Part shown: positions 43,708 to 62,601 of the stretch, one piece after another
How positions within the stretch are numbered: position 1 is the first letter of the stretch
Layout of the letters: each line of letters opens with the position of its first letter
Source: an uncultured Oscillospiraceae bacterium
GTDB taxonomy: Bacteria > Bacillota > Clostridia > Oscillospirales > Ruminococcaceae
Assembly: GCA_964368625.1 (NCBI GenBank)
Contig: CAYJBH010000013.1
Span: 5,372-69,371, forward strand
Length of the DNA: 64,000 nt
Reading direction: 5' to 3'
The notes under the pieces: generated by a model
Database searches by the model: none
What the model was told of the DNA's origin: nothing
What the model saw: the letters and a program-made list of their open reading frames with translations, nothing else
Made by a program: the position numbers and the translations under genes

Positions 43708-45204
43708 ATGGATGCTATAATTCAAAGCAAAAACATTCCGGTTTATCGAGGATTAACCGACAGCTATTTTGAGCTGCCGATTGAAACCGAAATACTGGTT
43801 CCGGACTATGTTGCCGAAGTGTTCAGAATAATAAAGTGCACGGTAGGCCATACGGTATTTCAAAAAAGCATGATATCGGGAAAAATATTGATTGAAGGTT
43901 ATCATAAAGTTTCGGTCTTTTATCAGGCTGAAAACAGCAGCGCTATCTGCCAGATAGAACAAAAACTTCCATTTTCAAAAAGTCTTGATTATAGAGGCGA
44001 GTGTATCGGAGAACATCGCATAACGGTTAATGGTCAATGCGAGTATCTTAACTGTAGGGCCATTAACCAAAGAAGGATTGACGTTAGAGGATCATACGGT
44101 ATGACAGCTTCGTTGCGATCCTTTGATGAGATGCCGGCGGTTGGCGCTATCGACTCCGAAACTATTTATCAAAAGTTTAATGAACTTAGCTATATCAGTT
44201 ATAATTCAACTGTTGAAAAACAGTTTACATTAGAACACGATGTTGAGTTTTATGAGGCACCCCGAAGTGTTCTTTATAACTATAGCGGGGCAAGTGTTAG
44301 TTCGGTAGAACAGGTAGGCGACCGAATTATAGTAAAAGGCGAGGTTAAAACCTCGATTAGCTATATTTCTAACCAAGAAACCTTTATAAAGGAGGTTAAA
44401 ACAATACCGGTAAATCAGGTTTTAGAGGTGGATGTTGAGGAAGGAGAGCTAATAATTTGCCCAACCATAACCATAAATAGTTGCAGTGTGATGGAGTCGG
44501 AAAATGAGGGTTATGTAGTTTCTTTAAACTGCGTTATATCAGCGGCCATCTACCTTGAGCAGAATCAAACGGTGGTAAAAGATGCCTTTTCAGCTGAATC
44601 AAATTACTGTACCACATATAGTAATGTCGAGCTACTTAGTGATAGGGAGAGGGTGGCTACAGATATGACTCTTAGCATACCAGTGCCTATCATAGAGGAT
44701 ATTGTGTCGGTAGTTGATAGCTTTACAACTATCGGAGCAATAAAGGTGCAGCACTCTGAAATTGGCTCACAACTAATGGGAGAGCTAACGGTACATTTAA
44801 TATGTGAAAATGAGCTGGGAGAGCTATGCTGTCTCGACAATGCAGGAGAATATAAAATTTCTACTACAGGTAGCATTAATGAATCAAGCTTTATAGATCT
44901 GGCTGCATCGGTAACAAATACAGTATGCAATCTTTCAGGGAAAGAGGTTTCGGTAGAGGTATCTGTATCTGTTTATGGCATTATCTGTAGGAAAAGCAGC
45001 TTTAGTATTTTACAGAGTATCGAGCTAACCGATACAGTATCGGAGGAGGCGAATGCAGCGCTTTGTATCTACTTTGCAGATGCGGGAGAGGCAGTTTTTG
45101 ATATTGCCAAAAGATACGGAGCATCACCCGAAGGAATAATGTCTCACAATAGCTTAACAGAAGAGATATTGAAATCAAAACAGCGACTTATAGTGCCGGT
45201 TTAA
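43708..45204 (+). CDS. SipL-like sporulation protein (DUF3794 repeats plus C-terminal LysM)
   Basis: 498 aa with the DUF3794-like N-terminus ETEILVPDYVAEVFRIIKC... and a C-terminal LysM (LCIYFADAGEAVFDIAKRYGASPEGIMSHNSL...LIVPV). AAGGGGGA RBS. Confidence 0.7.
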   Translation: MDAIIQSKNIPVYRGLTDSYFELPIETEILVPDYVAEVFRIIKCTVGHTVFQKSMISGKILIEGYHKVSVFYQAENSSAICQIEQKLPFSKSLDYRGECIGEHRITVNGQCEYLNCRAINQRRIDVRGSYGMTASLRSFDEMPAVGAIDSETIYQKFNELSYISYNSTVEKQFTLEHDVEFYEAPRSVLYNYSGASVSSVEQVGDRIIVKGEVKTSISYISNQETFIKEVKTIPVNQVLEVDVEEGELIICPTITINSCSVMESENEGYVVSLNCVISAAIYLEQNQTVVKDAFSAESNYCTTYSNVELLSDRERVATDMTLSIPVPIIEDIVSVVDSFTTIGAIKVQHSEIGSQLMGELTVHLICENELGELCCLDNAGEYKISTTGSINESSFIDLAASVTNTVCNLSGKEVSVEVSVSVYGIICRKSSFSILQSIELTDTVSEEANAALCIYFADAGEAVFDIAKRYGASPEGIMSHNSLTEEILKSKQRLIVPV

Positions 45205-45271: not shown

Positions 45272-46531
45272 ATGGAAAATTTTGATATATACAGCGATAT
45301 TGCACAGCGAACCGGCGGGGATATCTATATAGGTGTTGTTGGTCCGGTGAGAACAGGAAAAAGTACATTTATAAAACGTTTTATGGAGGAAATGATTTTA
45401 CCTGAGATAGACAGTGTTCCGTTAAGAAATCGAACCGTAGATGAACTTCCACAGTCAGCAACCGGCAAAACAATTATGACAACCGAACCCAAGTTTATAC
45501 CTGAGCAGTCAATAGCAATACAGCTAGAAAACGGAACACATTTTAACTCGAGATTAATAGATTGTGTTGGCTATGTTGTGGAAGGTGCAATGGGTCATGA
45601 AGAAAATGGTGAACCAAGAATGGTGAAATCGCCATGGTTTGAAAAAGATATACCATTTGACACCGCTGCTGAAATTGGCACAAAAAAGGTGATTAGAGAT
45701 CATTCAACCATAGGACTTGTTATAACAACAGATGGTACTATAGGGGATATACCTCGTGTTGCATACCAGGAAGCTGAGCAGAGGGTTATCGAAGAACTGC
45801 TGGAGATTAAAAAGCCTTTTGTAGTTTTGCTCAACACCATCGATCCATACAGTGAACAGGCAATTGCATTGGCACAAGGGCTTTCACAAAGATACGGGGT
45901 TACGGTAAAACCTGTTAACTGTCTCGACCTAGGAGAATCAGAATTTGCCGATATACTTCGCTCAGTGTTATATGAATTTCCGGTAAAAGAAATTCGGGTT
46001 GACATGCCTCGCTGGATTAACCTACTAGAAAAAGGACATTGGCTTCAACAGTCGGTATATCAGGATGTTCTTGTTTTTGCAGATAAGGTAGAGCACATTA
46101 AAGAACTTTGTGATGTTGCCACTATTATGGAAAATCCTAATGTAAACGATTGCTGTTTAGAGGATGTGAATCTTGGCACCGGAAGCGTAACCATTGCATT
46201 AACTCTAAACGATGATATTTTTTATAAAATTCTTGGTGAAACCACAGGTCTTAATATTGTGGATGAAGCAAGTCTGATGCCCTGTATAATTAAGCTTGCA
46301 AGGGACAAGAGGGAGTATGAAAAGATAAAACATGCCCTCGACGAAGTAGAGGCAACCGGCTATGGAATAGTTATGCCAACACGAGAGGAGCTTGTTCTTG
46401 AAGAACCGGAAATTATTAAACAGTCAGGAAGATTTGGTGTTAAAATTCGTGCAGGGGCACCTTCAATACATATTGAATGTATCAAACAGAAGTTATGTTT
46501 TTGGGGGATGTGCGGGGAAAGGTCGGCGTGA
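45272..46531 (+). CDS. spoIVA: stage IV sporulation protein A, 3'-truncated (homology ends near 46474)
   Basis: 419 aa. Walker A GVVGPVRTGKSTFIK, QSATGKTIMTTEPKF and HSTIGLVITTDGTI match through RFGVKIRAGAPSIHI. An unrelated 18-aa tail (ECIKQKLCFWGMCGERSA) then follows, and about 75 C-terminal residues of canonical SpoIVA are missing. Confidence 0.85.
   Translation: MENFDIYSDIAQRTGGDIYIGVVGPVRTGKSTFIKRFMEEMILPEIDSVPLRNRTVDELPQSATGKTIMTTEPKFIPEQSIAIQLENGTHFNSRLIDCVGYVVEGAMGHEENGEPRMVKSPWFEKDIPFDTAAEIGTKKVIRDHSTIGLVITTDGTIGDIPRVAYQEAEQRVIEELLEIKKPFVVLLNTIDPYSEQAIALAQGLSQRYGVTVKPVNCLDLGESEFADILRSVLYEFPVKEIRVDMPRWINLLEKGHWLQQSVYQDVLVFADKVEHIKELCDVATIMENPNVNDCCLEDVNLGTGSVTIALTLNDDIFYKILGETTGLNIVDEASLMPCIIKLARDKREYEKIKHALDEVEATGYGIVMPTREELVLEEPEIIKQSGRFGVKIRAGAPSIHIECIKQKLCFWGMCGERSA
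46466..46482. repeat. 6-5-6 inverted repeat at the spoIVA homology breakpoint (candidate recombination half-sites)
   Basis: ATACAT-ATTGA-ATGTAT is centred on the codon where SpoIVA similarity stops. Confidence 0.4.
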
Positions 46532-46600
46532 GAGGAGGTTTGAGGTGGGGGTTCATATAATAATCTAATAATGCATGATAAATAAAATGAATAGTTTATG

Positions 46601-46637
46601 AAAGCGCTTCATGTGATGATGAAGAGCTTTTTTGTTT
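46601..46637 (+). terminator. rho-independent terminator
   Basis: 12-bp stem AAAGCGCTTCAT / ATGAAGAGCTTT (one mismatch), 6-nt loop, then a TTTTTTG T-tract. Confidence 0.6.
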
Positions 46638-46687
46638 ATTGTATTATAAAACAACATCTGAATTATAGACACTATCAATAAAAAGTG

Positions 46688-46715
46688 TTGAAATACTGTA
46701 TTTTTATGGTATAAT
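46688..46715 (+). promoter_or_regulatory. sigmaA promoter (extended -10) of the glycopolymer cluster
   Basis: TTGAAA, 16-nt spacer, TGgTATAAT, 41 nt upstream of the ATG at 46757. Confidence 0.6.
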
Positions 46716-46756
46716 ATAAAAGTTAGTATATTAATAATAATAGAGTGTAAGCTAAT

Positions 46757-48091
46757 ATGAAAAAGATTATAACCTACGGTTCATTCGACCTTTTTCACGA
46801 GGGGCATCGGCGTCTACTAGAACGTGCAAAAGCTCTTGGCGATTATCTCATAGTTGGCGTTACAACAGAATATTACGACGAAAGCAGAGGGAAACTAAAT
46901 ATAGTAGACCCCCTGCTTAAGCGCATAGAAAATGTCAAGTCATGCGGCTTTGTAGACGAGGTTATTATCGAAGACCACGAGGGACAAAAGCTTGAAGACA
47001 TTTTAAAGTATGATATTGACACATTCACGCTCGGAAGCGATTGGGTTGGGCGGTTTGACTTTCTAAAAGATTACTGCAAGGTTGTGTATCTGGAGAGAAC
47101 GAAAAATGTATCCAGCACGCATTTGCGCGGTGAAAGGTATAAAATAATAAGACTCGGAATAATAGGCACCGGCAGAATTGCCACGAGAATAGTCCCCGAG
47201 AGCAAATTTGTAAGCGGAATAAACGCTGAATACGTGTTCAACCCGAATTCAAACAGTGCAAAAAAGTTTGCCGAAAAATACTCTCTTGAGCACTGTGAAT
47301 CGTTAGAAAATCTATATAAAAAAACAGATGCAGTGTATATAGCCAGCCCACACGACAGCCATTATTATTACATAAAATCTGCCCTAAACAGTGGCAAGCA
47401 TGTTATATGCGAAAAGCCAATGGTTTTGAATGCCGATGAGGCAAAAGAGTTATATTCGCTTGCAAAACAAAAGAAGTTGATTTTGCTGGAGGGCGTTAAA
47501 ACGGTATATGCACCGGGTTTTCAACAGCTGCTTGGCATGGTTAGAAGCGGAACTATCGGTAGCGTGCGAGATGTTGAGGCTTGCTTCACAAAACTGGTAG
47601 ATGAGAATTTGCGTGAGATGACAGACACAAAACATGGCGGAAGTTTCACAGAGCTCGGCAGCTATGTTTTACTGCCGATATTCAAGATATTCGGATGTAA
47701 TTATGAAAACGTAAGATTTGAGTTTTTTAGCGCAGAAAACGGAGTAGATGTTTATACAAAAGCCTTTTTTAAATTCAAAAACGGCCTCGCGACCGCCAAA
47801 ACCGGTCTTGGTGTAAAATCTGACGGACAACTTTTAATATCCGGCACAAAGGGGTATATTCTAGCAAAATCGCCATGGTGGCTTATGCAGGAGTTTGAGG
47901 TCTGTTTTGAAGACGCAACGCAAAACCAAAAATACAACACAAAATTCATGGGCAGTGGTTTGCGATATGAAATAAGCGAGTTTGTTAGCAGGATAAACGG
48001 CTACGAGCACAAGATAAACCGCCTGACTGAGGGGGAATCAATAGCCATGGCTGGGGTGCTTGAGGATTTTTTGAAGCTTAGAAATACTTAA
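46757..48091 (+). CDS. fusion protein: TagD-like cytidylyltransferase plus Gfo/Idh/MocA-family oxidoreductase
   Basis: 444 aa. Residues 1-130 (YGSFDLFHEGHRRLLERAKALGDYLIVGVTTE) resemble glycerol-3-phosphate cytidylyltransferase. From about residue 130 there is a Rossmann fold (RLGIIGTGRIA) and EKP motif (ICEKPM) of Gfo/Idh/MocA. Confidence 0.75.
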   Translation: MKKIITYGSFDLFHEGHRRLLERAKALGDYLIVGVTTEYYDESRGKLNIVDPLLKRIENVKSCGFVDEVIIEDHEGQKLEDILKYDIDTFTLGSDWVGRFDFLKDYCKVVYLERTKNVSSTHLRGERYKIIRLGIIGTGRIATRIVPESKFVSGINAEYVFNPNSNSAKKFAEKYSLEHCESLENLYKKTDAVYIASPHDSHYYYIKSALNSGKHVICEKPMVLNADEAKELYSLAKQKKLILLEGVKTVYAPGFQQLLGMVRSGTIGSVRDVEACFTKLVDENLREMTDTKHGGSFTELGSYVLLPIFKIFGCNYENVRFEFFSAENGVDVYTKAFFKFKNGLATAKTGLGVKSDGQLLISGTKGYILAKSPWWLMQEFEVCFEDATQNQKYNTKFMGSGLRYEISEFVSRINGYEHKINRLTEGESIAMAGVLEDFLKLRNT

Positions 48092-48101
48092 AGTTGGTTA
48101 T

Positions 48102-49289
48102 ATGGAAAACAAACAAATAACAGAACGATTTAACAAGTCGAAGAAGGTAAAGTTTTTATATAGGTTGATGCAAATCTTCCCTATCAATAAAACAAAGATT
48201 GTTTTTACCTCCTTTGAGGGAAAAGGGGGTTATTGTTGCAATCCACGATATATTGCACAAAAACTCATTGATGATAATAGTGGATATAAACTTGTTTGGA
48301 TTATAGATGATGTCACTAAAAAATTTCCAAAAGAAATAAAGGTTGTAAAAAACACTCTATTAAATCGAGCTTTTCATCTTTCTACCGCTAAAGTATGGGT
48401 TGACAATACGCGAAAACCATTAGGAACGATAAAAAGAAAAGGACAATTTTACCTACAAACGTGGCATGCCGGCATCGCAACAAAACCGATTGGCAAATTT
48501 AGGGGTAAACTTTTCCCGAAAATTGCCGAAGTAATAAGTAGGGAAGATTCGAAGTTGATAGACTGTGTAATCTCCGACAGCGATTGGTGCACCAAACTTT
48601 ATCCTGACATGCTTTTGTATGACGGCGAGATTATTAAAACCGGATTACCAAGGTGCGATGTGCTTTTTAACAACCGAGAACGCACCTATATGAGTATACG
48701 AAGTAAATACGGGTTAAAAAACGATAGCAAGATTGTTTTGTTTGCACCAACATTTCGTGGCGGTAGCCAACAAGGTAAACGCAGTATTTATTCCGAGATA
48801 CCAACGCTTGATTTTGCAAAACTTCAAAGCACACTTAGCGATAAATTTGGCGGAGAATGGCACTTATTTCTAAGACTGCATCCACAACTTTCGGCGGCCA
48901 TGTCAGAAATGCCACTTGATGAAAAGCCGGACAACATGGTAGACGTTAGCACCGCAGACGATATGAACGAGCTCATCGCGGCTTGTGACGTATTCATAAC
49001 AGACTATTCCAGCGCCGCATTCGATGCACTCTGTGCCAAAATCCCAACCTTTATCTATGCCGACGACTATGAGGAGTATATAAAGGAGCGAGGCAATTTA
49101 ATGTGGGATATGCGAGCACTACCGTTCGCATTTTGCGAAAACAATGAAGAGCTTAACGATAGTGTTTTACGCTTTGATGAACCTGCTTATAGCAAAAAAG
49201 CTGATGAGTTTTTAAAGGAACATGGTGTGCTGGCAGATGGGATGGCGAGTGAGAGGGTTGCAAAGACAATAATCGCAAAGCTGCGATGA
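48102..49289 (+). CDS. CDP-glycerol glycerophosphotransferase family protein (TagB/TagF-like)
   Basis: 395 aa with QTWHAG, LFAPTFRGG, LRLHPQ and FITDYSSAAFD motifs. Confidence 0.8.
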   Translation: MENKQITERFNKSKKVKFLYRLMQIFPINKTKIVFTSFEGKGGYCCNPRYIAQKLIDDNSGYKLVWIIDDVTKKFPKEIKVVKNTLLNRAFHLSTAKVWVDNTRKPLGTIKRKGQFYLQTWHAGIATKPIGKFRGKLFPKIAEVISREDSKLIDCVISDSDWCTKLYPDMLLYDGEIIKTGLPRCDVLFNNRERTYMSIRSKYGLKNDSKIVLFAPTFRGGSQQGKRSIYSEIPTLDFAKLQSTLSDKFGGEWHLFLRLHPQLSAAMSEMPLDEKPDNMVDVSTADDMNELIAACDVFITDYSSAAFDALCAKIPTFIYADDYEEYIKERGNLMWDMRALPFAFCENNEELNDSVLRFDEPAYSKKADEFLKEHGVLADGMASERVAKTIIAKLR

Positions 49290-49346
49290 TGTTTTCGAGT
49301 ATGGAATTTAACGAGTGTATTGACTTAAAAGAAGATAGGAGTAAAC

Positions 49347-50510
49347 ATGGAAAACTTAATCTCCGTTGTCATCCCGATATATAACACACGGGAGTACCTA
49401 CCGCAGTGTTTAAACAGTGTAATTAATCAAACGCACAAAAACCTTGAAATTATTCTTGTGGACGACGGCTCAACTGACGGCTCGGCCGAGATATGCGATG
49501 AATACGCAAAGCGTGATGAGCGAATAAAGGTGATACATCAGGAAAAAAACGGTGCGATGTTTGCAAGAAAATCTGGCATAAAAATAGCACGAGGTGATTA
49601 TATCGGTTTTGCTGATAGCGATGATTGGATGGAATCAAACCTCTATGAACATTTGCTTGAGTTGGTAGTCATGCATGATGTAGACTTTGCAACTACCGGG
49701 ATTCTTTATGAGGCAAAAGATTTTTCAGAACAAAGATACGTCGGACGTGAGGGGAAGTATAGTTATCATGATGCCGGAAAAATGTGCACCTATAAGCATA
49801 TGTACTATTCGGATAGGAATAGCACAAGTTGTTTAGCCCCACACCTTTACACAAAACTTTTTAAAAGAAAAATTGTAGAAAGTTTTTTCTTTAAGGTACC
49901 CGACGAAATAAGTATTTGCGATGATCATGCTTTTGTTTTTGGTTGCGTTCCCTTTATAGATTCTTTTTACGTTTCAACCGAGCCGCTTTACCACTACAGG
50001 CAACATCAAGCATCAATGATGAACACTACTCGCAAAGACTATATTTACAGTATCTCATTGTTTTACAATCATTTGAAAAATATGTTTGAAGAGCACGAAA
50101 AAAGTTCTTTGCTGATGGAGGAGCTTGACAAGCATTACGCGGCTATGGTTTTGCGAACAATTACAAAACTGTTGCCGAAAAATATTGTTGACGATCTTAT
50201 TTTGTGCCACCATTTTCCAATAGAGAGCTTGTTACCTTCGACTAAAATTATTATTTGCGGTGAAAAAGCAATTTGCGATTCTTACAGTAGACAACTTAAT
50301 AATTGTGAAAACATTGAAGTTTTGGAGATTGTTGATTGGCACAGTGTGAAAATTACGAATCATAATTACGACATTGTAATTGTTGCAACCGCAAAGTATG
50401 ATATCGCCGAAACAATTATAAAGGAACTTACCGAAAAACACAAAATCAAGTCCGAGAAAATTAAATGGAAAATCCCAAAGAGAATTTCGGATATTATTAT
50501 TGTGAAGTAA
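49347..50510 (+). CDS. family 2 glycosyltransferase with a C-terminal Rossmann-like extension
   Basis: 387 aa. ISVVIPIYNTREYL...ILVDDGSTDGS...DSDD is a GT-A signature. Residues 298-387 form an extra module (KIIICGEKA...). Confidence 0.85.
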   Translation: MENLISVVIPIYNTREYLPQCLNSVINQTHKNLEIILVDDGSTDGSAEICDEYAKRDERIKVIHQEKNGAMFARKSGIKIARGDYIGFADSDDWMESNLYEHLLELVVMHDVDFATTGILYEAKDFSEQRYVGREGKYSYHDAGKMCTYKHMYYSDRNSTSCLAPHLYTKLFKRKIVESFFFKVPDEISICDDHAFVFGCVPFIDSFYVSTEPLYHYRQHQASMMNTTRKDYIYSISLFYNHLKNMFEEHEKSSLLMEELDKHYAAMVLRTITKLLPKNIVDDLILCHHFPIESLLPSTKIIICGEKAICDSYSRQLNNCENIEVLEIVDWHSVKITNHNYDIVIVATAKYDIAETIIKELTEKHKIKSEKIKWKIPKRISDIIIVK

Positions 50511-50560
50511 ATGAATATTTGGCAAACTTCGATTAATATTTGTAAGAAAAAAGGAGTATA

Positions 50561-51709
50561 GTGAATATCCTATTTGTTGCAGGAAAAATGCCCACAATTT
50601 CATTTGCACATGTCAAAATTGTTATAGATATAATTACTGAATTTAAGACTTATGGGCATAATTGCATTATCAGCGGAGTATCTGATGAAAATTCGTTTGA
50701 AGAAGAAAATGGCATATTGATGCACAGATATTGCGACAGTGACGAAAAAAATAGAGGGTTAATGCACAAAAATTATGCAACCGAGCTTTGTGGAATAATT
50801 AATAAATATGAAATTGGAATTTTGATTGCAACAATATTTCCTTTCGGTGCAGCTCAAGCGGTGTTTGCAAATGAGAATATAGCATGTGACAAATATATAT
50901 TGCAAGTCGACCCCTGGGGGTTGCATGAGCAGGAAACGTTTTTTATTAAAACACAGCCGGAGCGAATAGCCCAAGAAAAAGAACTTTTTGATAAAGCCAA
51001 ATATATTTTCACAACTGCTTGCCTATTTGAACAATATATCCAAAACGCACACTATAAAATGTATACAAAAAAAATGTGTGTGCTTGAATTCCCGACAATT
51101 AAAGCACATGAAGACAACAAAACTGGTGTATTTGATTTCAACTCTGACTATTTCAATATTTTGTTTGCGGGTTTACTTGACGATAATTATCGAAACCCCG
51201 AAAAGTTTCTTGATGTTTTATGCAAAAACAGCTTTAAGCTGCCGAGAACAAGCAAAGAGTTACGCCTGTATTTTTTAGGTGGGAGCAAATCAAAAATTGC
51301 TTTAGACTTTAGTAATAGGTTTCCAAACAATATTTTTGTAGGCGGCAGGGTTGAATTGCCTGTGGCGATAGGCACAATGCAAAAAGCCGATGTATTGTTA
51401 AGTATTGGCAACGTTTTTACTAATCAAGTGCCAAGCAAAATATTCGATTATTTCAGCCTGGGGAAGCCGATATTGCATGTGAAAAAAATCGAAAAATGCA
51501 CAAGTATCAAATATCTGGACAGATATCCGCTGAAGCATATTTTTGATGAAAATAAAGAGCCAAATTTAAATGGATTGGGTGAATTTTTAAACGATGCAAT
51601 CGGAAAAAATGTCGATTTTAAAACTGTTCGGGCATTGTATGAAGAGTTTACGCCCGAATACGTAGCAAAAAAAATGGAAAATATTATTTGTTGCGACTCA
51701 ACACAATAA
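50561..51709 (+). CDS. GT-B fold (GT4-like) glycosyltransferase, divergent
   Basis: 382 aa. GTG start after an AAGGAG RBS. The C-terminal VPSKIFDYFSLGKPIL resembles the EX7E region of GT4 enzymes. Confidence 0.5.
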   Translation: MNILFVAGKMPTISFAHVKIVIDIITEFKTYGHNCIISGVSDENSFEEENGILMHRYCDSDEKNRGLMHKNYATELCGIINKYEIGILIATIFPFGAAQAVFANENIACDKYILQVDPWGLHEQETFFIKTQPERIAQEKELFDKAKYIFTTACLFEQYIQNAHYKMYTKKMCVLEFPTIKAHEDNKTGVFDFNSDYFNILFAGLLDDNYRNPEKFLDVLCKNSFKLPRTSKELRLYFLGGSKSKIALDFSNRFPNNIFVGGRVELPVAIGTMQKADVLLSIGNVFTNQVPSKIFDYFSLGKPILHVKKIEKCTSIKYLDRYPLKHIFDENKEPNLNGLGEFLNDAIGKNVDFKTVRALYEEFTPEYVAKKMENIICCDSTQ

Positions 51710-51796
51710 CATCAACAGCTCTGTAATGTACCGACTTCCGAAATATCGCTTAGAGCGAACTTCCCCGTCAATAATAGCGGAGGGAGGGTAGTGAGC

Positions 51797-52126
51797 ATGC
51801 TGAATCTTGTGGTAGAAAACGATACAGTTGAATTATTATATCTGTTTCCGTGCAAAAAAGGCGCAGTAGAGGGAAGTACAGAAAAATATAGATTTTGCGG
51901 GTTTTCATTTGATGCTTTAGGCCATGATCGAGGTGTTGAGAAAATATCCCGATGCACAAATTTACACCAACGGATTAAACCCTACAACTATAAAATGGCA
52001 TCGAAAGCATCTTTTGGGAACCTACAAGTGATATATTGCAAAATTGATGAGGAGAAACGAACTATTAAGTATGTTACATTTTTAGATACATTATCAGAAA
52101 AACAGATTTTTGAAAGAATACAATAG
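51797..52126 (+). CDS. hypothetical small protein
   Basis: 109 aa from the ATG, preceded by GGAGGGAGGG. No recognisable motif. The region is locally more GC-rich than its neighbours. Confidence 0.3.
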   Translation: MLNLVVENDTVELLYLFPCKKGAVEGSTEKYRFCGFSFDALGHDRGVEKISRCTNLHQRIKPYNYKMASKASFGNLQVIYCKIDEEKRTIKYVTFLDTLSEKQIFERIQ

Positions 52127-52176
52127 TTGTAAAGCACATTTATATATTTTATAGCAGTTCAACAGGGAGGAAACGA

Positions 52177-53352
52177 GTGAAAAAACGTTGTACTATATTG
52201 GTTTTATACGACAAAGATGGAGTTTTCGATGACTACGTATTTTATCTAATTAACGAATTAAGGCAAGTTTCTACTCGTGTTATTGCAGTGATAAACGGTT
52301 TTGTTCAAAAAAAATACAAAAAGCAGATTGAAGAAGTTTGTGACGATGTCATTACTCGAGAAAATATAGGCTATGATGCAGGTGCATATCAGTATGTTTT
52401 TAATCAATATCTTAGCAAAGAGGATTTGCAAAATTACGATGAGATAATATTTTGTAACGATACTTTTTTCGGGCCTTTTGTCCCATTTAAAGATGTTTTT
52501 GCGACCATGGACAATCGTCAATGCGATTATTGGGGGTTAACATTTTATGAAAATGGATTTTCCTCCTGCATTCAAAGCTATTTCATTTGTTTTGGGGAAA
52601 AGATAATTAAGAACAATGAGCTACATTATTTTTGGGAACACATAATGCCCAAAAAAGTGAACTCTTACGATGAGGTTTGTAGATATTATGAAGCCGGAAT
52701 TTTTGAATATCTTAACTCTAGATATTACCAAAAGGACACTTTTGTTTCTTCAGACGACTGTTTTTTATATGTTGACCCTGATCATTACATTAAAAATCTA
52801 AAATGTCCCATACTTAAAAAAAGAGTTTTTACTCCTCAATACTATAATGTTGAAAAAACAGTTAATGCTTTAAAAGTCATTAAGTCTCAGTATAAATACG
52901 ATATCGATTTAATACTAAATCATATAGACAGATGTTATTCGATTAGCAACAATGATATCGTGATTGACGAAACTACGGATAGCGTATTTCAAATTGATCG
53001 CAAACCCCATATAGAGCATAAATTTATTTCGCATGAATTGGTTAATTCTTTCTATTATAATTTTGACAAAATGTATATATACGGTATAGGCCAATTTGAA
53101 AAACATACGAGTAATTACTTTTTAATTAAAGCACATAAAGAATTAATTAAGTTTGAGGGATATGTTGTTTCAGAGGGACACAAAACAAAATGTGAGCATA
53201 ATGGTTATCCACTTTATGAAGTTATAGAACTTGCTAGTGACAATAAATGTGGAGTCTTAGTATTGTTGAATTATGAAAATAGTTTATCCGTAAAACTATC
53301 AGCTCCAAAGCATTTAAACTTGTTTTATTTATATGTTGAATTAAATAACTAA
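52177..53352 (+). CDS. rhamnan synthesis protein F (RgpF) family glycosyltransferase with a C-terminal Rossmann-like extension
   Basis: 391 aa with ILVLYDKDG, GYDAGAYQ and CNDTFFGPF motifs. GTG start after AGGGAGG. Confidence 0.7.
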   Translation: MKKRCTILVLYDKDGVFDDYVFYLINELRQVSTRVIAVINGFVQKKYKKQIEEVCDDVITRENIGYDAGAYQYVFNQYLSKEDLQNYDEIIFCNDTFFGPFVPFKDVFATMDNRQCDYWGLTFYENGFSSCIQSYFICFGEKIIKNNELHYFWEHIMPKKVNSYDEVCRYYEAGIFEYLNSRYYQKDTFVSSDDCFLYVDPDHYIKNLKCPILKKRVFTPQYYNVEKTVNALKVIKSQYKYDIDLILNHIDRCYSISNNDIVIDETTDSVFQIDRKPHIEHKFISHELVNSFYYNFDKMYIYGIGQFEKHTSNYFLIKAHKELIKFEGYVVSEGHKTKCEHNGYPLYEVIELASDNKCGVLVLLNYENSLSVKLSAPKHLNLFYLYVELNN

Positions 53353-53525
53353 TTAGAATTAATGAACATTTGTGCTTGCTAAAAATATTTGACTACGCAC
53401 ATAAGTGCAGGTATTCATGTGGCAGTAGGTGCTTATCATACTAATAAGATCATTTGTCAACTTGAGTAAAGAATAATTAGTAATAGCTTAAAATTTACGA
53501 ATGTTTGAAATTATCCGGAGTGAAA

Positions 53526-54914
53526 ATGAAAAAACGTGTTGCGGTTTTTGGTACAGGTAAACTTTATGAACAAAAAAAGCACTTGTTGCAAAATGTTAAA
53601 ATAGTTGTTTTCTTTGATAATGATGAAAAAAAACATGGCAAAATGCTTGATGGTGTGATTGTTGCTGCTCCTGATCAACACAGGCTGTACCATTTTGATT
53701 ATATTATCATAATGAGCATTTACTATAACGATATTATGAGCCAGTTATCACAGTTGAATATTGATGACAATAAATATATATATTACCTCGAATTGGATGA
53801 GAAGGGAGATTATGAGCCTCAATATACTTACGATTTAAATAAGCTTATCAATGCTATTGATAAAGACAAAATAGTTTTACTAGTTACTAATGAATTATCT
53901 TTAACGGGAGCACCTATAGTGCTCTATTATATGTCTTGTGTTTTTCAAAACTTAGGCTATAATCCCATTGTGATAAGCCTGAGAGACGGAGATTTAAAAC
54001 ACGATTTTTTTGCTAAGTCTGTTCCGGTTATTGTTGAACCATATGCAAGTGTTAACAATCAATATTTAAAGTTAGTAGTACAAAAATCTGAGGTAATAGT
54101 TTTTAACACAGCCACGGTGGGATTTTTAATACCTAAATTTCAAAAATTCAATAAAAATATTTTGTGGTGGATACACGAAAGTGCATCCTTATATAAATCC
54201 ATTTATTTTCATCAAGACTTAAAAAGAATTACATCTCAGATTAAGATATGTGCAGTAAGCGAGGTTGCAAAAAGAAACTTTTGCAATGAATATTCCAAAG
54301 AGAACATATACATCTTACCGTTTGGATTGCCGGATACAGCAACCGAAAACAATGAAAAGCCATCAAGCAAACTTACTATGGCAATTATTGGCACGATACA
54401 CCCAATTAAAGGTTACGACATTCTCATTGAAGCATTATTAACTTTAGAAGATTCAACTAGAAACCATTTGAAGGTCATTTCAGTCGGCAAAATGATTAAC
54501 GAATCTATAACACAAAATTTTAGTGATAAATTTACAGATGCAGTCAATGAGGGGTTAATTACTCATTTGGGTGAAATGAGCAGGAATGAAGTAGAAAAAA
54601 TAATTAAAGAAGTAGATATAATAGTTTGTGCTTCAAGAGAAGAAACGATGTCTGCTGTCGTTGTTGAAGGTATGATGCACAGCAAAGTGTGTATAGTGTC
54701 AGATTCAGCAGGTATTTGCGAATACTTGATCGACAAGGAGAATGTATTAATATTTAATAATTTATCTTCAAAAGATTTGGCGAGAAAAATTGAATGGTGT
54801 ATCTTAAGAAGCGAAAATCTTAAAACAATCGGTTGTAATGCTCGTAAAACATTTAAACAGTTTTTTTCTTTGGATGTTTTCGAAAAAAATTTAGAAAATT
54901 TGTTAAGTATGTAA
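53526..54914 (+). CDS. GT4-family glycosyltransferase with an N-terminal Rossmann-like extension
   Basis: 462 aa from the ATG (GGAG RBS). N-terminal VAVFGTGKLY...VVFFDNDEKKHGK module. C-terminal EETMSAVVVEGMMHSKVCIVSDSAG is an EX7E-like motif. Confidence 0.7.
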   Translation: MKKRVAVFGTGKLYEQKKHLLQNVKIVVFFDNDEKKHGKMLDGVIVAAPDQHRLYHFDYIIIMSIYYNDIMSQLSQLNIDDNKYIYYLELDEKGDYEPQYTYDLNKLINAIDKDKIVLLVTNELSLTGAPIVLYYMSCVFQNLGYNPIVISLRDGDLKHDFFAKSVPVIVEPYASVNNQYLKLVVQKSEVIVFNTATVGFLIPKFQKFNKNILWWIHESASLYKSIYFHQDLKRITSQIKICAVSEVAKRNFCNEYSKENIYILPFGLPDTATENNEKPSSKLTMAIIGTIHPIKGYDILIEALLTLEDSTRNHLKVISVGKMINESITQNFSDKFTDAVNEGLITHLGEMSRNEVEKIIKEVDIIVCASREETMSAVVVEGMMHSKVCIVSDSAGICEYLIDKENVLIFNNLSSKDLARKIEWCILRSENLKTIGCNARKTFKQFFSLDVFEKNLENLLSM

Positions 54915-54933
54915 ATTCAAACCATGGGTAGTT

Positions 54934-56511
54934 ATGAAAAAAGTCGGTATAATAACGTTATATGAAAAAACATATAATTATGGGGCGCAGCTTCAAGCGT
55001 ATGCGCTACAAAAAGTTATTTCTAGTTTGCATTTTGATTGTGAGTTAATTCGCTTTATGTGGATGAATAGATTTGCTGAAAACAGTTATGAGAATATTAA
55101 TAATTTAAGCGAAGGGCTGTTTTTAGATTTTTTTAATTCAATCCCACATAGCAGCAACTCATATGACAGCAACAGCATTTTTAATGCAAATAACAACTAT
55201 GACATTTTTGTTTGCGGTAGCGACCAAATATGGGGTTGCGAAGATAGCCTTCCAACCTACAACCTTCCTCTTATGACGCTTGGGTTTGCTGACGATTCAA
55301 AAAATAAAGTTGGTTATGCAATAAGCTTCGGAGGGGCTATTCTAGATAACCGTAGGGCTTTAGCTGTTAAAAGTGCGGCATCTTCTTTGGATAGTATTTC
55401 TGTTCGTGAACATAGTTCGACAGAATTTGTTGAAAATCTCGTTGGCAAGAATGTTCAAACGGTGGTTGACCCTACCCTCTTACTTACTAAAGAAGATTGG
55501 GGCGATTTTGTGAAGCTAAATCATAGAGATTATGTTTTAGTGTATACGATTACTAATAACTCCGATGCTATTAATTATGCAAACTTATTAGCCGATAAAT
55601 TAGGTTGTGGTGTTGAGGTTATAACCTACACCAACAATAGACCTGTGGGGACAAAAGAATTTGTTAGCCTTATTGCCAACTGCAAATTCATGATAACCGA
55701 TTCTTATCACGGAACAATTTTCAGCATAATTTTCAACAAACAGTTTTTTTCAATGTATATAGAACCGTCGGAATCGAATTTTTCGAAAAATATTAGAATT
55801 AAAGATTTGCTAATAAAGTTCGATTTAATTAATAGATATATTTCTTTTGAAGATAATATTATACAAAAGTACACCACAGCAAAAAGTATCGACTACAGCA
55901 AAATAAACGTGTTAGTAAAAAATGCCAGAGAAAAATCTATTGCATTTTTAAACAAAGCTCTTATGTTCAACAAAAAAAATGCATCTATAGGCAATTCACC
56001 TAAATTTTGTAATCCGTACGAGCTATACATAGACTCTTTATCGCAATATCTACCACCAGAGCTTCTCAGCTATGAAAAATGCTTGTTAGAAAAAGAAATA
56101 TTGCGGGAAAATCAAATTTTTTCATTAATTAAACAAAAAAACATGTGGAATATTTTGTCAAGAATCGAGAGATGCATTTCAGAAAATTATAAATTTAAAG
56201 ATATTGATGTTATAAAAGAACATGTAATAATATATGGGTTAGGCATGATTGGCAAGCGAATATGTGAATTATTTTCAGATAAATTAATTGCCATAGTTGA
56301 TGAAAAATTAGCGCCAGGAAGTTATAATAGTTTTAAAATACTAAAAATCGATGACGATTCACTGGCAGAACTAATAATAGGTAAGAAGGTAACATTTATA
56401 GTAACTCCTACTTGGGATAAAGAGATTATAGCAAGAAAAATTATCAACAGACAATTTATAGATTCAAATGTTGTTTTTATTGACAATATTTTGCCAAAAT
56501 ATAAAATTTAG
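54934..56511 (+). CDS. polysaccharide pyruvyl transferase family protein with a C-terminal Rossmann-like extension
   Basis: 525 aa with NYGAQLQAYAL, GSDQIW and TDSYHGTIFS motifs. Residues 430-525 form an extra module (VIIYGLGMIGK...). Confidence 0.75.
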   Translation: MKKVGIITLYEKTYNYGAQLQAYALQKVISSLHFDCELIRFMWMNRFAENSYENINNLSEGLFLDFFNSIPHSSNSYDSNSIFNANNNYDIFVCGSDQIWGCEDSLPTYNLPLMTLGFADDSKNKVGYAISFGGAILDNRRALAVKSAASSLDSISVREHSSTEFVENLVGKNVQTVVDPTLLLTKEDWGDFVKLNHRDYVLVYTITNNSDAINYANLLADKLGCGVEVITYTNNRPVGTKEFVSLIANCKFMITDSYHGTIFSIIFNKQFFSMYIEPSESNFSKNIRIKDLLIKFDLINRYISFEDNIIQKYTTAKSIDYSKINVLVKNAREKSIAFLNKALMFNKKNASIGNSPKFCNPYELYIDSLSQYLPPELLSYEKCLLEKEILRENQIFSLIKQKNMWNILSRIERCISENYKFKDIDVIKEHVIIYGLGMIGKRICELFSDKLIAIVDEKLAPGSYNSFKILKIDDDSLAELIIGKKVTFIVTPTWDKEIIARKIINRQFIDSNVVFIDNILPKYKI

Positions 56512-56540
56512 TTACACCATAGTTAAGAAAGAAGGCAATA

Positions 56541-58199
56541 ATGCTTAAAAATTATACTGTAGAAAGAAATGTTCAAATACTTATTGACTTACTGAAGCAA
56601 CATAATGTAAAAAAAGTAATTGTAAGTCCCGGTACAACAAACGTTTGCTTTGTCGCCAGTATACAACAGGATACTTTTTTTGAAATATATTCCTGTGTAG
56701 ATGAACGTTCGGCAGCCTACATGGCCTGTGGGTTAGCCGCGGAAAGCGGTGAACCGGTAGTGCTCAGCTGTACCGGTGCAACTGCCTCGAGAAATTATAT
56801 GCCGGCTTTAACCGAAGCTTACTACAGAAAACTTCCTATCTTGGCAGTAACTTCTATGCAGCATTCGGCTCGAATAGGTCATAATATACCACAAGCAATA
56901 GACAGATCAGTGATGCCTAATGATACTGTTAAGTATAGTGTAGAGCTTAAGGTGATGAGAGATAATGATGACCTATGGGGTTGTAATGTTGCTGTTAATA
57001 AAGCTTTATTACTTTTAAAAGACAAAAATCCAGGACCGGTACATATTAATTTGATAACAACCTATCACCAAGATTTTTCCACCGATTCACTTCCAAGGCA
57101 GCGCGTGATAAATAAAATATATTCCGACGACCATTTTCCGAAGATCACTGAAAAAAAAGTTGTTATATTCGTTGCTGAACATATTGAATGGAATAAAGAA
57201 TTAACCATAGCAGTAGAAAAATTTTGCGAAAAATATAATGCCGTAGTTTTATATGATCACACCGGTAAGTATAAAGGGGAATATGGAATTTTGCCAAATT
57301 TATTGTTGAGCGTAGATCAACCATCTCCTTTTAGTGAAATTGATTTAATGATCAGCATAGGAAATGTTTCTGGTGCTTATTTGCCTTTAACTCCCAAAAC
57401 TGTTTGGCGGGTAAACCATGACGGCGAAATAAGAGATACATACAGAACGTTAAGGTATGTGTTTGAGATGAAAGAGGAAATGTTTTTCACTAAATATTGT
57501 GAATTATCTGAAGCTAACAACCTGTCGTATTACCACCAATGGAAAGAGGCAGATGAAAAAATAAGGAAACTTGTGCCAGATTTGCCATTTTCAAACCCTT
57601 GGATAGCTCAAAGAACTATTGCGCATTTGCCGAAAAACTCGGTTCTTCATTTAGGAATACTTAACTCGCTGCGCTCATGGAACTTTTTTGAAGCAGACAA
57701 GAGCATTACGGTTTATTCTAACACCGGAGGTTTTGGCATTGATGGATGTGTATCAACACTAATCGGAGCCTCCTTAGCCAATACCGATAAACTGTTTTTT
57801 GGTGTCGTTGGAGATTTGGCCTTTTTTTACGACATGAATTCGTTAGGAAATCGTCACATTTCAAACAATCTTAGGTTAATTGTTGTTAACAACGGCAAAG
57901 GAACTGAGTTCAGGCACTATAATCACTTTGCTGCAAAGTTTGACGAAAGTGCCGATACGTTTATTGCTGCTGCTGGTCATTTTGGGAACAAGTCTTCTTT
58001 ATTGATAAAAAACTATTCTGAAAATCTTGGTTTTGAATATATCAGCGCTAGTTCAAAACAAGAATTTGATAAGGTGTTAGATGATTTTGTTTTTTCACAA
58101 AAGAAAAATCAATCCATTATTTTTGAAGTGTTTACAAATAATGAAGATGAAAGTAACGCTCTAAAAAAAATTAACTTTATGAGCACCAACGGGAGTTAA
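56541..58199 (+). CDS. thiamine diphosphate-dependent enzyme, MenD/acetolactate-synthase-like
   Basis: 552 aa. N-terminal Pyr domain (VSPGTTN, VDERSAAYMACGLA, LSCTGATASRN) and C-terminal PP domain (GDLAFFYDMNSL...NNGKG). Confidence 0.75.
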   Translation: MLKNYTVERNVQILIDLLKQHNVKKVIVSPGTTNVCFVASIQQDTFFEIYSCVDERSAAYMACGLAAESGEPVVLSCTGATASRNYMPALTEAYYRKLPILAVTSMQHSARIGHNIPQAIDRSVMPNDTVKYSVELKVMRDNDDLWGCNVAVNKALLLLKDKNPGPVHINLITTYHQDFSTDSLPRQRVINKIYSDDHFPKITEKKVVIFVAEHIEWNKELTIAVEKFCEKYNAVVLYDHTGKYKGEYGILPNLLLSVDQPSPFSEIDLMISIGNVSGAYLPLTPKTVWRVNHDGEIRDTYRTLRYVFEMKEEMFFTKYCELSEANNLSYYHQWKEADEKIRKLVPDLPFSNPWIAQRTIAHLPKNSVLHLGILNSLRSWNFFEADKSITVYSNTGGFGIDGCVSTLIGASLANTDKLFFGVVGDLAFFYDMNSLGNRHISNNLRLIVVNNGKGTEFRHYNHFAAKFDESADTFIAAAGHFGNKSSLLIKNYSENLGFEYISASSKQEFDKVLDDFVFSQKKNQSIIFEVFTNNEDESNALKKINFMSTNGS

Positions 58200-58204
58200 T
58201 ATAA

Positions 58205-59263
58205 ATGGAAATTTTAGTTTTAGGCGGAACCGGTGCGATGGGCGTACACTTAGTACATTTTTTAACAAACACAAACGCAAACGTCACTGTAACTTCAAGA
58301 AGAAGCCATCAGTCGTACGCGAACATTAAATATATTGTGTGTAATGCTAAAAATTCCGATGAATTATCTAAGGTTTTACTGAAGAAATGGGATGTGATAG
58401 TCGACTTTATGGCATATGATACAACACAGCTTTTCACAAATAATATAACGAATATTTTGTCGCAGACAAACCAGTATATTTTTTTGAGTTCGGCGAGAGT
58501 ATATGATAATTTGTCCACCGTAATTACGGAGCAATCTACACGGCTACTAGACACTTGTGTTGACAGTGAATACTTAAATACTGATGAATATGCGCTATCT
58601 AAAGCACGGCAAGAAAATGCTTTAATTAACGGCGATTATGCAAATTGGACAATAATAAGACCATATATTACCTATGATACATATCGCATGCAGCTTGGGA
58701 CATATGAGTTGAATAATTGGCTGTACAGAGCAATTAATAAAAGATCGGTAGTATTCGATACCGAAATGCTAAACCGAAAAACAACCATGACATATGGGGC
58801 TGATGTCGCAAAAAGAATAACTGCGATAATTGGTAATAAGGCAGCGCTTGGAGAGGTTTATCAAATTGCTACTAACGAGTTTAAAACATGGCGTCAAGTA
58901 ATGGATATTTACTTTGATGCAATCGAAGAAAAACTTGGTTTTAGACCTAATTGTGTTGAAGTCAAAAATATTCAAAGTGCTTTAAATATTAAAAATTCGA
59001 AGCATCAAATTGTTTACGATAGAATGTTTGACCGTGTGTTCGATAGCTCGAAAATTAATACACTTTGCTTAGATGACAACTACACCAACTTGAAAGAGGG
59101 CTTAACGAAGTGTCTTGACGATTTTCTCCTCGAGCCTTATTTTGGTAATATCAATTGGGGCTTTGAGGCCATTAAAGATAAAATAGCTAACGAGAGAATA
59201 CGATACAGTGAAATTGGCAATGTTAAAAAATATTTAAACTATTTTAAGTGCCGATATTTTTAA
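58205..59263 (+). CDS. NAD-dependent epimerase/dehydratase (extended SDR) family protein
   Basis: 352 aa with N-terminal VLGGTGAMG and a YALSK catalytic motif. Confidence 0.8.
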   Translation: MEILVLGGTGAMGVHLVHFLTNTNANVTVTSRRSHQSYANIKYIVCNAKNSDELSKVLLKKWDVIVDFMAYDTTQLFTNNITNILSQTNQYIFLSSARVYDNLSTVITEQSTRLLDTCVDSEYLNTDEYALSKARQENALINGDYANWTIIRPYITYDTYRMQLGTYELNNWLYRAINKRSVVFDTEMLNRKTTMTYGADVAKRITAIIGNKAALGEVYQIATNEFKTWRQVMDIYFDAIEEKLGFRPNCVEVKNIQSALNIKNSKHQIVYDRMFDRVFDSSKINTLCLDDNYTNLKEGLTKCLDDFLLEPYFGNINWGFEAIKDKIANERIRYSEIGNVKKYLNYFKCRYF

Positions 59264-59402
59264 TGAAATTATCGATAAATATTTTGGGGATTTTATATTA
59301 ACCCAATATCACTAGATATATTACACATCACCGCTTCCCCAATCTTAAACACAGTTGAGATTTACAATATTTGTAGAGTTTTACTAAACTAAAGGAACTA
59401 AA

Positions 59403-61841: not shown

Positions 61842-62171
61842 AGCTCCTATAGTTATTAAGCAAAACATAATAAAAAGATATACCATATTTTAATAAAATA
61901 GATCGATAATATTAATTATGCACGAATAACATATTTAATAAATCACTATATAATGATTTTATGTAATCAATTTATCTAATAAGTAATTATTTACGAGTCG
62001 TTAGATCTTTTTCACGAGAGGCATGCCTATCAACTTGAGCATGCTAAAGTGTCTGTTTTTTTGGGGTTTGGGGCTTGCCCCAACATGGCAAAGCGGGGCG
62101 GTGTGTACCGGTCTGCCTTGCTTGCAAGCTTGTTTGCTTTTAAATACATAGTCTAAAATTATATAATAAAT

Positions 62172-62213
62172 GTGTTAAAAATCATTTGCGAAACATTCTA
62201 TGATTTTTAACAC
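62172..62213. repeat. perfect 14-bp inverted repeat with a 14-nt spacer
   Basis: GTGTTAAAAATCAT ... ATGATTTTTAACAC, followed by a T-rich tract. Confidence 0.7.
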
Positions 62214-62364
62214 GTTTATTTTTGTGCAAATTTTTTTAACACCACTACCCAAACCCACTCTTTTTTCACGATTAGTGAGAAGAACAGCATTTCGAAAACC
62301 ATCAAAATACAAAAGCAATGAATATCGGGTGCTAACCTTTCATATTAATTGAAAAAGGGGTGGG

Positions 62365-62535: not shown

Positions 62536-62601
62536 GATGAATTTACTCTTGCCGCATTATGGCTGTTGTGGATTTTATTTTAAATGAAATTGTTAACTTT
62601 A

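Follow-up and report, generated by a model that had tools for sequence, protein, structure and literature searches.

We analysed a stretch of 64,000 nucleotides from an uncultured Oscillospiraceae bacterium (contig CAYJBH010000013.1 of assembly GCA_964368625.1, positions 5,372 to 69,371), hereafter the window, which contains a truncated copy of the sporulation gene spoIVA. This open reading frame (ORF) is followed by a cluster of cell-wall glycopolymer genes, a gene for a putative mobilisation accessory protein and, at the window edge, the start of a large serine recombinase (LSR) gene. All coordinates are those of the window, and all features lie on its forward strand except for the attachment sites, which are given without strand. 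The initial annotation, made from the sequence alone, had proposed that an element of at least 17.5 kb splits spoIVA. This structural claim holds and is supported by an empty site in an intact relative, breaks at the same codon in other genomes and the right junctions of related elements.

The truncated spoIVA ORF (45272..46531) encodes 419 aa including the Walker A box GVVGPVRTGKST and ends with the TGA stop codon at 46529-46531, both as first described. Based on Pfam, NCBIfam and alignments, codons 1-400 (45272..46471) represent the 5' part of spoIVA, with the ATPase domain and most of the middle domain (SpoIVA_ATPase 1-237 of 237 and SpoIVA_middle 1-165 of 179). SpoIVA_C (PF20439) was not found in a Pfam search of this ORF, and NCBIfam TIGR02836 matches it over model positions 1-402 of 492, with 542 bits against an equivalog cut-off of 459.9. 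The complete set of domains in one polypeptide of ~490 aa (TIGR02836, or PF09547 with PF20438 and PF20439) is not encoded, and the window ORF is a gene fragment. In alignments with three full-length relatives (P0002-P0004; 491 aa, ~85% identical), similarity ends at ..APSIH, nucleotides 46471-46474, which matches the break initially placed at about 46474. The C-terminal 91 residues are absent, where ~75 codons had been estimated, and codon 400 is followed by 19 foreign codons and a stop (IECIKQKLCFWGMCGERSA; 46472..46531; no SpoIVA similarity) instead of the 18 residues counted before. The relatives' C-terminus reads ..EGC(T/S)GLVCIIL and not GGLIAIIL-like as had been expected. A tblastn search of every frame of the window with the missing C-terminus returned no match elsewhere, consistent with the earlier remark that the other two forward frames do not continue SpoIVA.

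The 5' half of spoIVA is under purifying selection, as dN/dS is ~0.01 between the window and its sister genome L090, both of which carry split alleles; the L090 contig stops 326 nt past the truncated gene. This ratio was considered and rejected as proof that the split state is functional, owing to saturation at synonymous sites and to divergence of the two elements past their first 82 nt.

Colinearity between the window and L089 (GCA_964370825.1), a relative with an intact spoIVA, extends from 38757 to 46473, where the alignment ends. The shared genes encode a cystathionine-type lyase, RecA, a two-component pair, a SipL-like protein and SpoIVA. The sipL-like gene (43708..45204; Pfam SipL SPOCS 8.6e-15, weak LysM) belongs to the host context and may be co-transcribed with spoIVA; the same gene order is found in L089 and in L001, L002 and L090. 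Past the break, L089 continues with the 3' sequence of spoIVA and a DUF218 gene, matching the related loci L003 and L005 and not the window, and nothing of window positions 46474-64000 is present at its spoIVA locus. The comparison with uninterrupted relatives suggested in the initial annotation thus yields an empty site. Furthermore, six other proteins (P0005, P0006, P0007, P0011, P0039 and P0056) lose SpoIVA similarity at the identical residue. Foreign tails akin to that of the window (ECIKQKLCFWG..) follow in P0005, P0006 and P0011 and partly in P0039, although the SpoIVA parts of these four are only 56-80% identical to that of the window. Because of the empty site and the cuts at the same residue with related tails, the break is a recombinase attachment site rather than a product of decay. 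Judged from these alignments, a serine recombinase element is inserted inside this sporulation gene, between codons 400 and 401. Its visible part spans 46472..64000 (at least 17.5 kb), and the right end lies past the window.

Recombinase and attachment sites

The recombinase gene starts at 63807 and is cut by the window end at 64000, in line with the large serine recombinase noted initially at the window edge. Its N-terminal 64 codons, recognised by likeness to L005 and a PHROG integrase match, include the sequence YARVS with the catalytic serine. Residues 1-64 are 98% identical to the L005 recombinase, and the last 475 bases of the window, which comprise a small ORF and the recombinase start, share 84.5% nucleotide identity with that locus, so we regard the window gene as an orthologue of the recombinase at the junction in L005. 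The L005 protein has the size (546 aa) and the domains of large serine recombinases (Resolvase, 9.4e-30; Recombinase, 2.9e-23; Zn_ribbon_recom, 3.8e-5), of which the window holds residues 1-64 only. The recombinase also shows sub-threshold similarity to the NCBIfam model for XisF (1.2e-28; 100 bits against a cut-off of 375), a score far too low for an XisF equivalog.

In L003, L004 and L005, an LSR of 546-570 aa with Resolvase, Recombinase and Zn-ribbon domains is directly followed on the same strand by a 91-aa SpoIVA_C ORF, and the TGA stop codon of the recombinase lies inside the ATGATG that opens the spoIVA 3' fragment. L003 and the 5' fragment L002 are from one assembly. L004 and the 5' fragment L001 are on a single contig of GCA_964368295.1, where a homologous element of ~31 kb separates both spoIVA halves. 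A recombinase at the element edge is a hallmark of intervening elements; the window contains its start (63807), and in these three loci and ~25 further loci the full gene adjoins the 3' fragment. The 3' fragment predicted to lie beyond the recombinase in the same orientation and frame phase was accordingly seen in L003, L004 and L005 and in ~25 species genomes of the Genome Taxonomy Database (GTDB). In addition, a query with the SpoIVA C-terminus retrieved many proteins of 90-91 aa that begin at the break (MMK.. or MMR..) and contain only the SpoIVA_C domain; the three followed to their DNA are those of L003, L004 and L005. The 65 clusters of such 91-aa fragments come from a search of short proteins only and give no prevalence figure.

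For the attachment sites, 11 attL and 24 attR junctions were aligned, to which the window itself contributes attL only. The attL of the window (46445..46496) consists of a host half-site ending in ..GCACCTTCAATAC, a core of 8 bp identical between attL and attR (ATACATAT, 46466-46473) and an element arm (CAAACAGAAGTT, 46483-46494). The attL consensus is ..GCNCCNTCNATACAT followed at the breakpoint by ATTGAATGTAT and CAAACAGAAGT.., and the attR consensus is ..AACTTCTGTTTG and TTCCAAGCAATACAT followed by ATGATGAAR... The core ATACATAT and the arms AACTTCTGTTTG and CAAACAGAAGTT are common to all aligned junctions. The corresponding attB is a conserved coding stretch of spoIVA, GCNCCNTCNATACAT followed by ATGATGAAR, which encodes APSIH and MMK on either side of the breakpoint. 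Joining the outer halves in silico links APSIH and MMK in frame and yields 400 + 91 = 491 codons, as in intact genes, so that precise excision across the core shared by attL and attR would restore the reading frame. Joining the inner halves yields an attP, AACTTCTGTTTG-N26-CAAACAGAAGTT, whose 12-bp arms are perfect inverted repeats separated by 26 bp. The centre of the rebuilt attP is the CA of ATACATAT (46469-46470), which is the putative crossover dinucleotide as inferred from symmetry. An attP layout of this kind is known for large serine integrases, and the sites are likewise short, with dyad symmetry and an attP/attB core of 8 bp. The junction alignment also identifies the foreign tail in the spoIVA frame as read-through of the right arm of attP.

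The short common core flanked by inverted repeats that the initial annotation suggested looking for is represented by ATACATAT and the 12-bp arms. The inverted repeat it had reported at the break (ATACAT-ATTGA-ATGTAT, 46466-46482) is present and lies on the attachment site; with 34 perfect 6-N5-6 inverted repeats in the window, it is at chance level by itself and is noteworthy only because of its position. Scanning the window for Rfam families and tRNAs gave no match, so the site is not of the tRNA type. In L009 (2440-2570), a Defluviitaleaceae metagenome-assembled genome (MAG) represented by a single 3.8-kb contig, the recombinase end adjoins the spoIVA 5' half in opposite orientation, and the near-palindromic attP may permit insertion in either orientation.

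The recombinase ORF crosses attR, so that its stop codon in L003-L005 is host DNA. In the excised form, read-through into the left end of the element (46472..46568; ILNVSNRSYVFGGCAGKGRRERRFEVGVHIII, stop at 46566-46568) would extend the ORF by ~31 codons. In 10 of 12 elements, such an extension in the recombinase frame measures 28-35 aa, with a common [FYC][NE]V.[VL] motif at its end, whereas the tail in the spoIVA frame varies from 12 to 62 aa, and conservation of the left end runs on past the stop codon in the spoIVA frame. Integration thus clips the recombinase, and the difference between integrated and excised forms might act as a direction switch, along the lines of an idea put forward for a C-terminal element of SprA.

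A perfect sigma-A consensus promoter (TTGACA-17-TATAAT, 63717-63745; 12 of 12 matches) precedes the recombinase gene in the window. At the equivalent place, a promoter of this type (TTGACA-16/17-TATAAT) matches at all 12 positions in 13 of 26 elements and at no fewer than 10 in 21 of them.

Directly upstream of the recombinase, the window contains a small ORF of 69 aa (copy A, 63496..63705) with a conserved motif, a candidate recombination directionality factor (RDF). Members of this family have 44-86 aa and share E[IV]KL.[IV]N..L[YF].KG.ITEEMY.KAKE. Their usual distance to the recombinase downstream is 27-170 nt; in L015, L016 and L020 it is 1.5-2.5 kb. A second member of 56 aa (copy B, 62365..62535) shares 72% identity with its counterpart just upstream of the L004 recombinase. 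Apart from a match of copy B to SHOCT_2 (0.0038, below cut-off), no Pfam or NCBIfam family was assigned, and a word-based search gave four homologues. The AF2 model of copy A is a helical hairpin (pLDDT 76), for which Foldseek returned no match better than E = 1.2. The conserved small ORF is the best candidate for the directionality factor.

Distribution of spoIVA elements and other targets

One genome per GTDB species was scanned with the L005 recombinase and 80 loci were kept; the genome of the window is not a species representative. Among recombinase relatives of at least ~55% identity, nearly all adjoin a spoIVA 3' fragment (~25 GTDB species genomes), the exceptions being four Defluviitaleaceae loci and one locus cut by a contig end. 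In total, the same element design is found at spoIVA in ~27 species, including the cultured Ruminiclostridium papyrosolvens C7, R. sufflavum DSM 19573 and Pseudoflavonifractor capillosus An827. Eight loci contain both spoIVA halves, with elements of 3.7-10.3 kb, and the overall size range is 3.7 to ~31 kb. Every spoIVA half seen has an open, full-length reading frame. The spoIVA-type recombinases form a single clade in a neighbour-joining tree. Between some hosts they are 88-92% identical while the SpoIVA proteins share only ~58% identity, which points to horizontal spread of the elements. Phage and plasmid collections contain no close relative of the recombinase, the best match being 45% identical.

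Two loci with more distant recombinases (47-49% identical to the spoIVA type) have reached spoIVA independently. In L067 (~5379 and 11621), an element of a distant lineage occupies the same spoIVA codon with different arms, and in L078 (5100-5471) the insertion point is ~6 codons further downstream and the recombinase ORF continues in frame into the 3' part of spoIVA. Insertion into this short stretch of spoIVA seems to be recurrent. Among the loci surveyed, several MAGs of project ERP123703 (L006, L007, L022 and L023) are titled 'uncultured Bacteroides sp.' and yet carry sipL/spoIVA and the elements. Given these sporulation genes the title is implausible, and the contigs look like those of Oscillospiraceae-type Firmicutes.

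Further target-specific clades of the recombinase tree adjoin sigK, spoVD, ylmC/ymxH and a D-Ala-D-Ala carboxypeptidase gene, the first three being sporulation families according to NCBIfam. The recombinases next to sigK form a sister clade, are 45-51% identical to the spoIVA type and represent skin-type elements of Oscillospiraceae and Faecousia MAGs. Fifteen loci (L032, L033, L037, L038, L041, L044, L047, L048, L051, L052, L056, L057, L060, L064 and L072) have relatives at 46-51% identity adjoining sigK 3' sequence (SigK model 66-188 of 227). The recombinases of L070, L074-L077, L079, L080, L082 and L083 are 45-46% identical to the spoIVA type. At these loci (e.g. L074, 10001-12293) the sequence directly after the recombinase encodes the C-terminal portion of a SpoVD-type penicillin-binding protein (TIGR02214 ~416-633 of 636), which suggests that spoVD-intervening elements exist; the L074 cargo is a type I restriction-modification system. 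In L065, L066, L068, L071 and L084 (e.g. L066, 11649-11852), the recombinase precedes the C-terminal half of YlmC/YmxH (TIGR02888 positions 36-76 of 76, above cut-off). In L061-L063 and perhaps L059 (e.g. L062, after 11683), it adjoins a D-Ala-D-Ala carboxypeptidase-like fragment whose Dac matches are below cut-offs.

Proposed developmental excision and alternative explanations

The arrangement is compatible with an element that leaves spoIVA during sporulation. An LSR inserted a non-phage integrative element between codons 400 and 401 of spoIVA. The integration product comprises, on the left, the 5' spoIVA fragment with 19 element codons and a terminator; in the middle, the glycopolymer cargo with its own vegetative promoter; and at the far end the small ORF, the recombinase and, as seen at the right junctions of related elements, the 91-codon spoIVA 3' fragment, which overlaps the stop codon of the recombinase. 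By analogy with skin in sigK, SPbeta in spsM and gin in gerE, synthesis of the recombinase would be constitutive, and the directionality factor, for which the small ORF is a candidate, would be made in the mother cell only. Early in sporulation the element would be excised from the mother-cell chromosome, which would rebuild spoIVA for expression from a sigma-E-dependent promoter, and the forespore would retain the element.

We consider developmental excision in the mother cell the best explanation, with a probability of roughly 0.65. It is suggested by the skin-like design, in which the recombinase is located at the edge directly upstream of the 3' fragment, by the adjacency of related recombinase clades to sigK, spoVD, ylmC/ymxH and the carboxypeptidase gene, and by spoIVA being a sigma-E target whose halves are all intact and whose carriers include members of a spore-forming genus. 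SpoIVA acts early, under sigma-E, and mother-cell expression of spoIVA is known from B. subtilis. The gene is also among the sigma-E targets given for C. difficile (PMC5025042), and Ruminiclostridium, including R. papyrosolvens and R. sufflavum, has been described as spore-forming (PMC10701907).

Several observations weigh against developmental excision. The window lacks the right junction, the 3' spoIVA fragment of its own genome was not recovered and probably lies on another contig, as the present one most likely ends at or close to the right edge of the window, and carrier genomes may possess a second intact spoIVA. Pfam, NCBIfam and structure searches detected no likeness of the small ORF to known directionality factors, and a B. 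subtilis-type sigma-E matrix scored 11-15 upstream of the small ORFs compared with a control mode of 10-11, which does not clearly exceed random expectation. A search for attP as ACTTCTGTTTG-N22-30-CAAACAGAAGT gave three unrelated matches in JGI metagenome contigs and none in IMG/VR. Moreover, because recombinases are highly identical between distant hosts, many insertions may be recent, and intact halves and low dN/dS are therefore no proof of selection on the split state. The NikA/MobC-like gene and the strong vegetative promoter of the recombinase would also fit an ordinary integrative mobilisable island without developmentally controlled excision, for which spoIVA is a mere landing site and whose carriers are sporulation-defective or sporulate only after rare loss of the element. 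Such an island would explain the presence of a mobilisation gene inside the element, a consensus vegetative promoter on the recombinase, very recent horizontal spread of the latter, the lack of the attP product in public contigs (JGI, IMG/VR) and a sporulation promoter without statistical support. Furthermore, P. capillosus is described as non-sporulating. This explanation nevertheless appears unlikely, given that the same recombinase family adjoins sigK, spoVD, ylmC/ymxH and the carboxypeptidase gene, which would be expected only if insertion is tolerated, that no relaxase or transfer genes are present in the visible part, and that ~27 species have the insertion with both gene halves intact, among them species described as spore-forming.

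Stochastic excision and re-integration in growing cells, resulting in a population switch between sporulating and non-sporulating sub-populations, is less probable still. It would be in keeping with a recombinase promoter that looks constitutive and a recombinase C-terminus that differs between integrated and excised states and could bias direction, and mixed integrated and excised populations are known for yin in yabG (PMC10747680). However, the visible part contains no replication genes, and a circle that does not replicate would be lost on division, which is at odds with the broad occurrence of the element and its stable assembly in the integrated form. Finally, plain decay of spoIVA to a pseudogene by random deletion or insertion, or a chimeric assembly at 46474, could account for what the window shows by itself, namely a truncated gene followed by unrelated DNA on a metagenome-assembled contig. 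Neither is credible in view of an identical breakpoint with conserved junctions in more than 25 independent assemblies, isolates included, the missing 91 codons intact beside the orthologous recombinase, and both junctions on one contig.

Interrupted sporulation genes have been reported for sigK, spsM, spoVFB, spoVR, gerE and yabG (PMC5025042, PMC4191935, PMC5595907, PMC10747680). A literature search found no report of spoIVA as a target, in agreement with the initial annotation; as coverage was incomplete, this amounts to absence of evidence only. Systems of this kind are known; what is new is that spoIVA is the target, that the cargo is of a non-phage, glycopolymer type and that the elements are so broadly distributed. 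Among the closest known systems is gin in gerE of B. cereus ATCC 10987 (PMC5595907), by its published description also a non-prophage element in a mother-cell sporulation gene, with a serine-type recombinase (GirC) and a small accessory gene (GirX). Precise excision of gin restores the host ORF, whereas restoration of spoIVA is in silico only. The spoIVA elements further differ from gin in their target, in a size of up to at least 31 kb and in a large and variable cargo of glycopolymer clusters, toxin-antitoxin genes, or agr-like and glycoside hydrolase genes.

Like skin elements in sigK (SpoIVCA in B. subtilis; CD1231 and the RDF CD1234 in C. difficile; PMC5025042), the spoIVA elements have no cargo in common and are united by the recombinase, which in skin elements too is located at the edge and directly precedes the 3' fragment (Galperin et al., bioRxiv 2022.02.25.481979). 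The combination of a constitutive recombinase with a mother-cell-specific RDF for timing, as in C. difficile skin (PMC5025042), is the model proposed here for the spoIVA element. Unlike skin, the spoIVA element interrupts the gene of a structural morphogenetic ATPase and not of a sigma factor, has no phage genes, and its candidate RDF is an uncharacterised SHOCT-like helical hairpin. SPbeta in spsM (SprA/SprB; PMC4191935, PMC5499854) similarly combines an LSR with a separately regulated small RDF, and a sporulation gene is reassembled when SPbeta is excised in the mother cell. Both systems are linked to polysaccharide synthesis, although SPbeta is an active phage that splits a polysaccharide gene while in the spoIVA element polysaccharide genes are the cargo. 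Further elements, vfbin in spoVFB and vrin in spoVR (cited in PMC4191935) and yin in yabG (PMC10747680), interrupt other mother-cell sporulation genes and are excised as circles; they are prophage-like and have been described from single strains or species, in contrast to the non-phage spoIVA elements of ~27 species genomes.

A more distant parallel outside the Firmicutes is provided by cyanobacteria. In heterocysts, the serine recombinase XisF removes the fdxN element, which likewise resides in a gene required solely by a terminally differentiated cell. The phylum and the developmental programme are different, and the XisF score of the spoIVA recombinase is far below the equivalog cut-off.

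Among coat morphogenetic proteins, SpoIVA alone is conserved throughout the endospore formers (Galperin et al., bioRxiv 2022.02.25.481979). If excision is required, an early structural gene would join the list of rearranged sporulation genes given above, and the phenomenon would be common in uncultured gut and environmental Clostridia instead of a quirk of few model strains. Since related clades adjoin sigK, spoVD and ylmC/ymxH, insertion into sporulation genes seems to be tolerated. More tentatively, and with less than even odds, one family of non-phage LSR elements may have spread over at least five targets in anaerobic Firmicutes (spoIVA, spoVD, ylmC/ymxH, the D-Ala-D-Ala carboxypeptidase gene and sigK), with an excision-dependent spoIVA, a clipped recombinase as direction switch and cargo carried in the germ line free of cost. 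The earliest step of coat and cortex morphogenesis would then depend on DNA excision in the spoIVA branch, and surface-glycan, restriction-modification and toxin-antitoxin cargo would ride the germ line without cost to sporulation. In genome annotation and in surveys of 'sporulation gene loss', a split spoIVA will be wrongly counted as a pseudogene, and the same probably applies to spoVD and ylmC. The elements provide a defined vehicle that carries cell-wall glycopolymer clusters between genera, their recombinases and att pairs represent ready-made orthogonal integrases, and the three cultured carriers make the excision hypothesis directly testable.

Cargo and accessory features

Downstream of the truncated spoIVA, a terminator-like hairpin with a U run was identified (46600..46637; hairpin 46600-46631). 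The terminator proposed initially is favoured by RNA folding (-13.4 kcal/mol, z = -3.85, none of 200 shuffles as good) and was not called by a simple terminator scanner. A sigma-A-like promoter (TTGAAA-16-TGnTATAAT, 46688-46715), also noted before, precedes the cargo and is predicted from its consensus match at 11 of 12 positions. The cargo (46757..61841) consists of 11 co-directional ORFs assigned to cell-wall glycopolymer synthesis by Pfam and NCBIfam. These encode a cytidylyltransferase/GFO_IDH fusion, a TagF-like CDP-glycerol glycerophosphotransferase, GT2, RgpF and GT4 proteins, a pyruvyl transferase, a MenD-like TPP enzyme, an epimerase and three ORFs without assigned function. None of the cargo ORFs is present at the corresponding locus of L089. 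The cluster had been described as visibly more AT-rich, which applies to 50-62 kb (GC 0.327) and not to the first 3.5 kb past the break (0.395), where GC equals that left of the break (0.393) within 0.002.

Glycopolymer genes had initially been judged unusual cargo, but such clusters recur in L001/L004, L003 and L005. Only the recombinase and the small ORF are common to all spoIVA elements, and the cargo varies. The minimal element of 3.7 kb (L011) contains the recombinase, the small ORF and a ParE toxin with its antitoxin as sole recognisable genes. No PHROG families other than integrase were detected in the scanned ORFs of the visible 17.5 kb, where structural, packaging and lysis genes of a prophage are missing; the closest phage recombinases are at most 45% identical.

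The gene initially named MobC (62940..63281) is present and encodes a NikA-like protein (Pfam 3e-15), with a weak match to MobC (0.0022). No relaxase, type IV secretion system or replication genes were seen in the visible part of the element, and the relatives L003 and L005 lack the MobC gene. The small ORF occurs twice in the window, with the NikA/MobC-like gene between the two copies. Copy B and its flank (62156-62535) resemble L004 (78% nucleotide identity) and copy A resembles L005, which suggests a mosaic or an internal insertion near the right end of the element.

A putative sigma-E-like motif, GAATATC-N14-CATATTAA (62320..62348), was recognised 16 nt before copy B, and motifs of this type are found at equal distance in L006, L007, L022 and L023. 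The sequence before copy A is GTATATT-N14-AATATTAAT (~63437-63465). Upstream of sipL (~43650-43690), GAATAAT-N14-AATATATAT resembles the motif before copy A, a likeness without statistical support, and may be a local form of the sigma-E promoter. A GC-rich segment at 62023-62135 interrupts an AT-rich spacer. Over 66 nt it shares 85% identity with L023 (9171-9236), within a different spoIVA element, and it has no Rfam match; it could possibly be an origin of transfer (oriT) or a regulatory site. The 6.3-kb element of R. papyrosolvens C7 (L015, 5370-11641), as judged by reading its sequences, probably encodes an agr-like membrane protein, a histidine kinase and a dockerin-bearing GH53-like galactanase, and would thus carry a cellulosome component as cargo of a sporulation-gene element.

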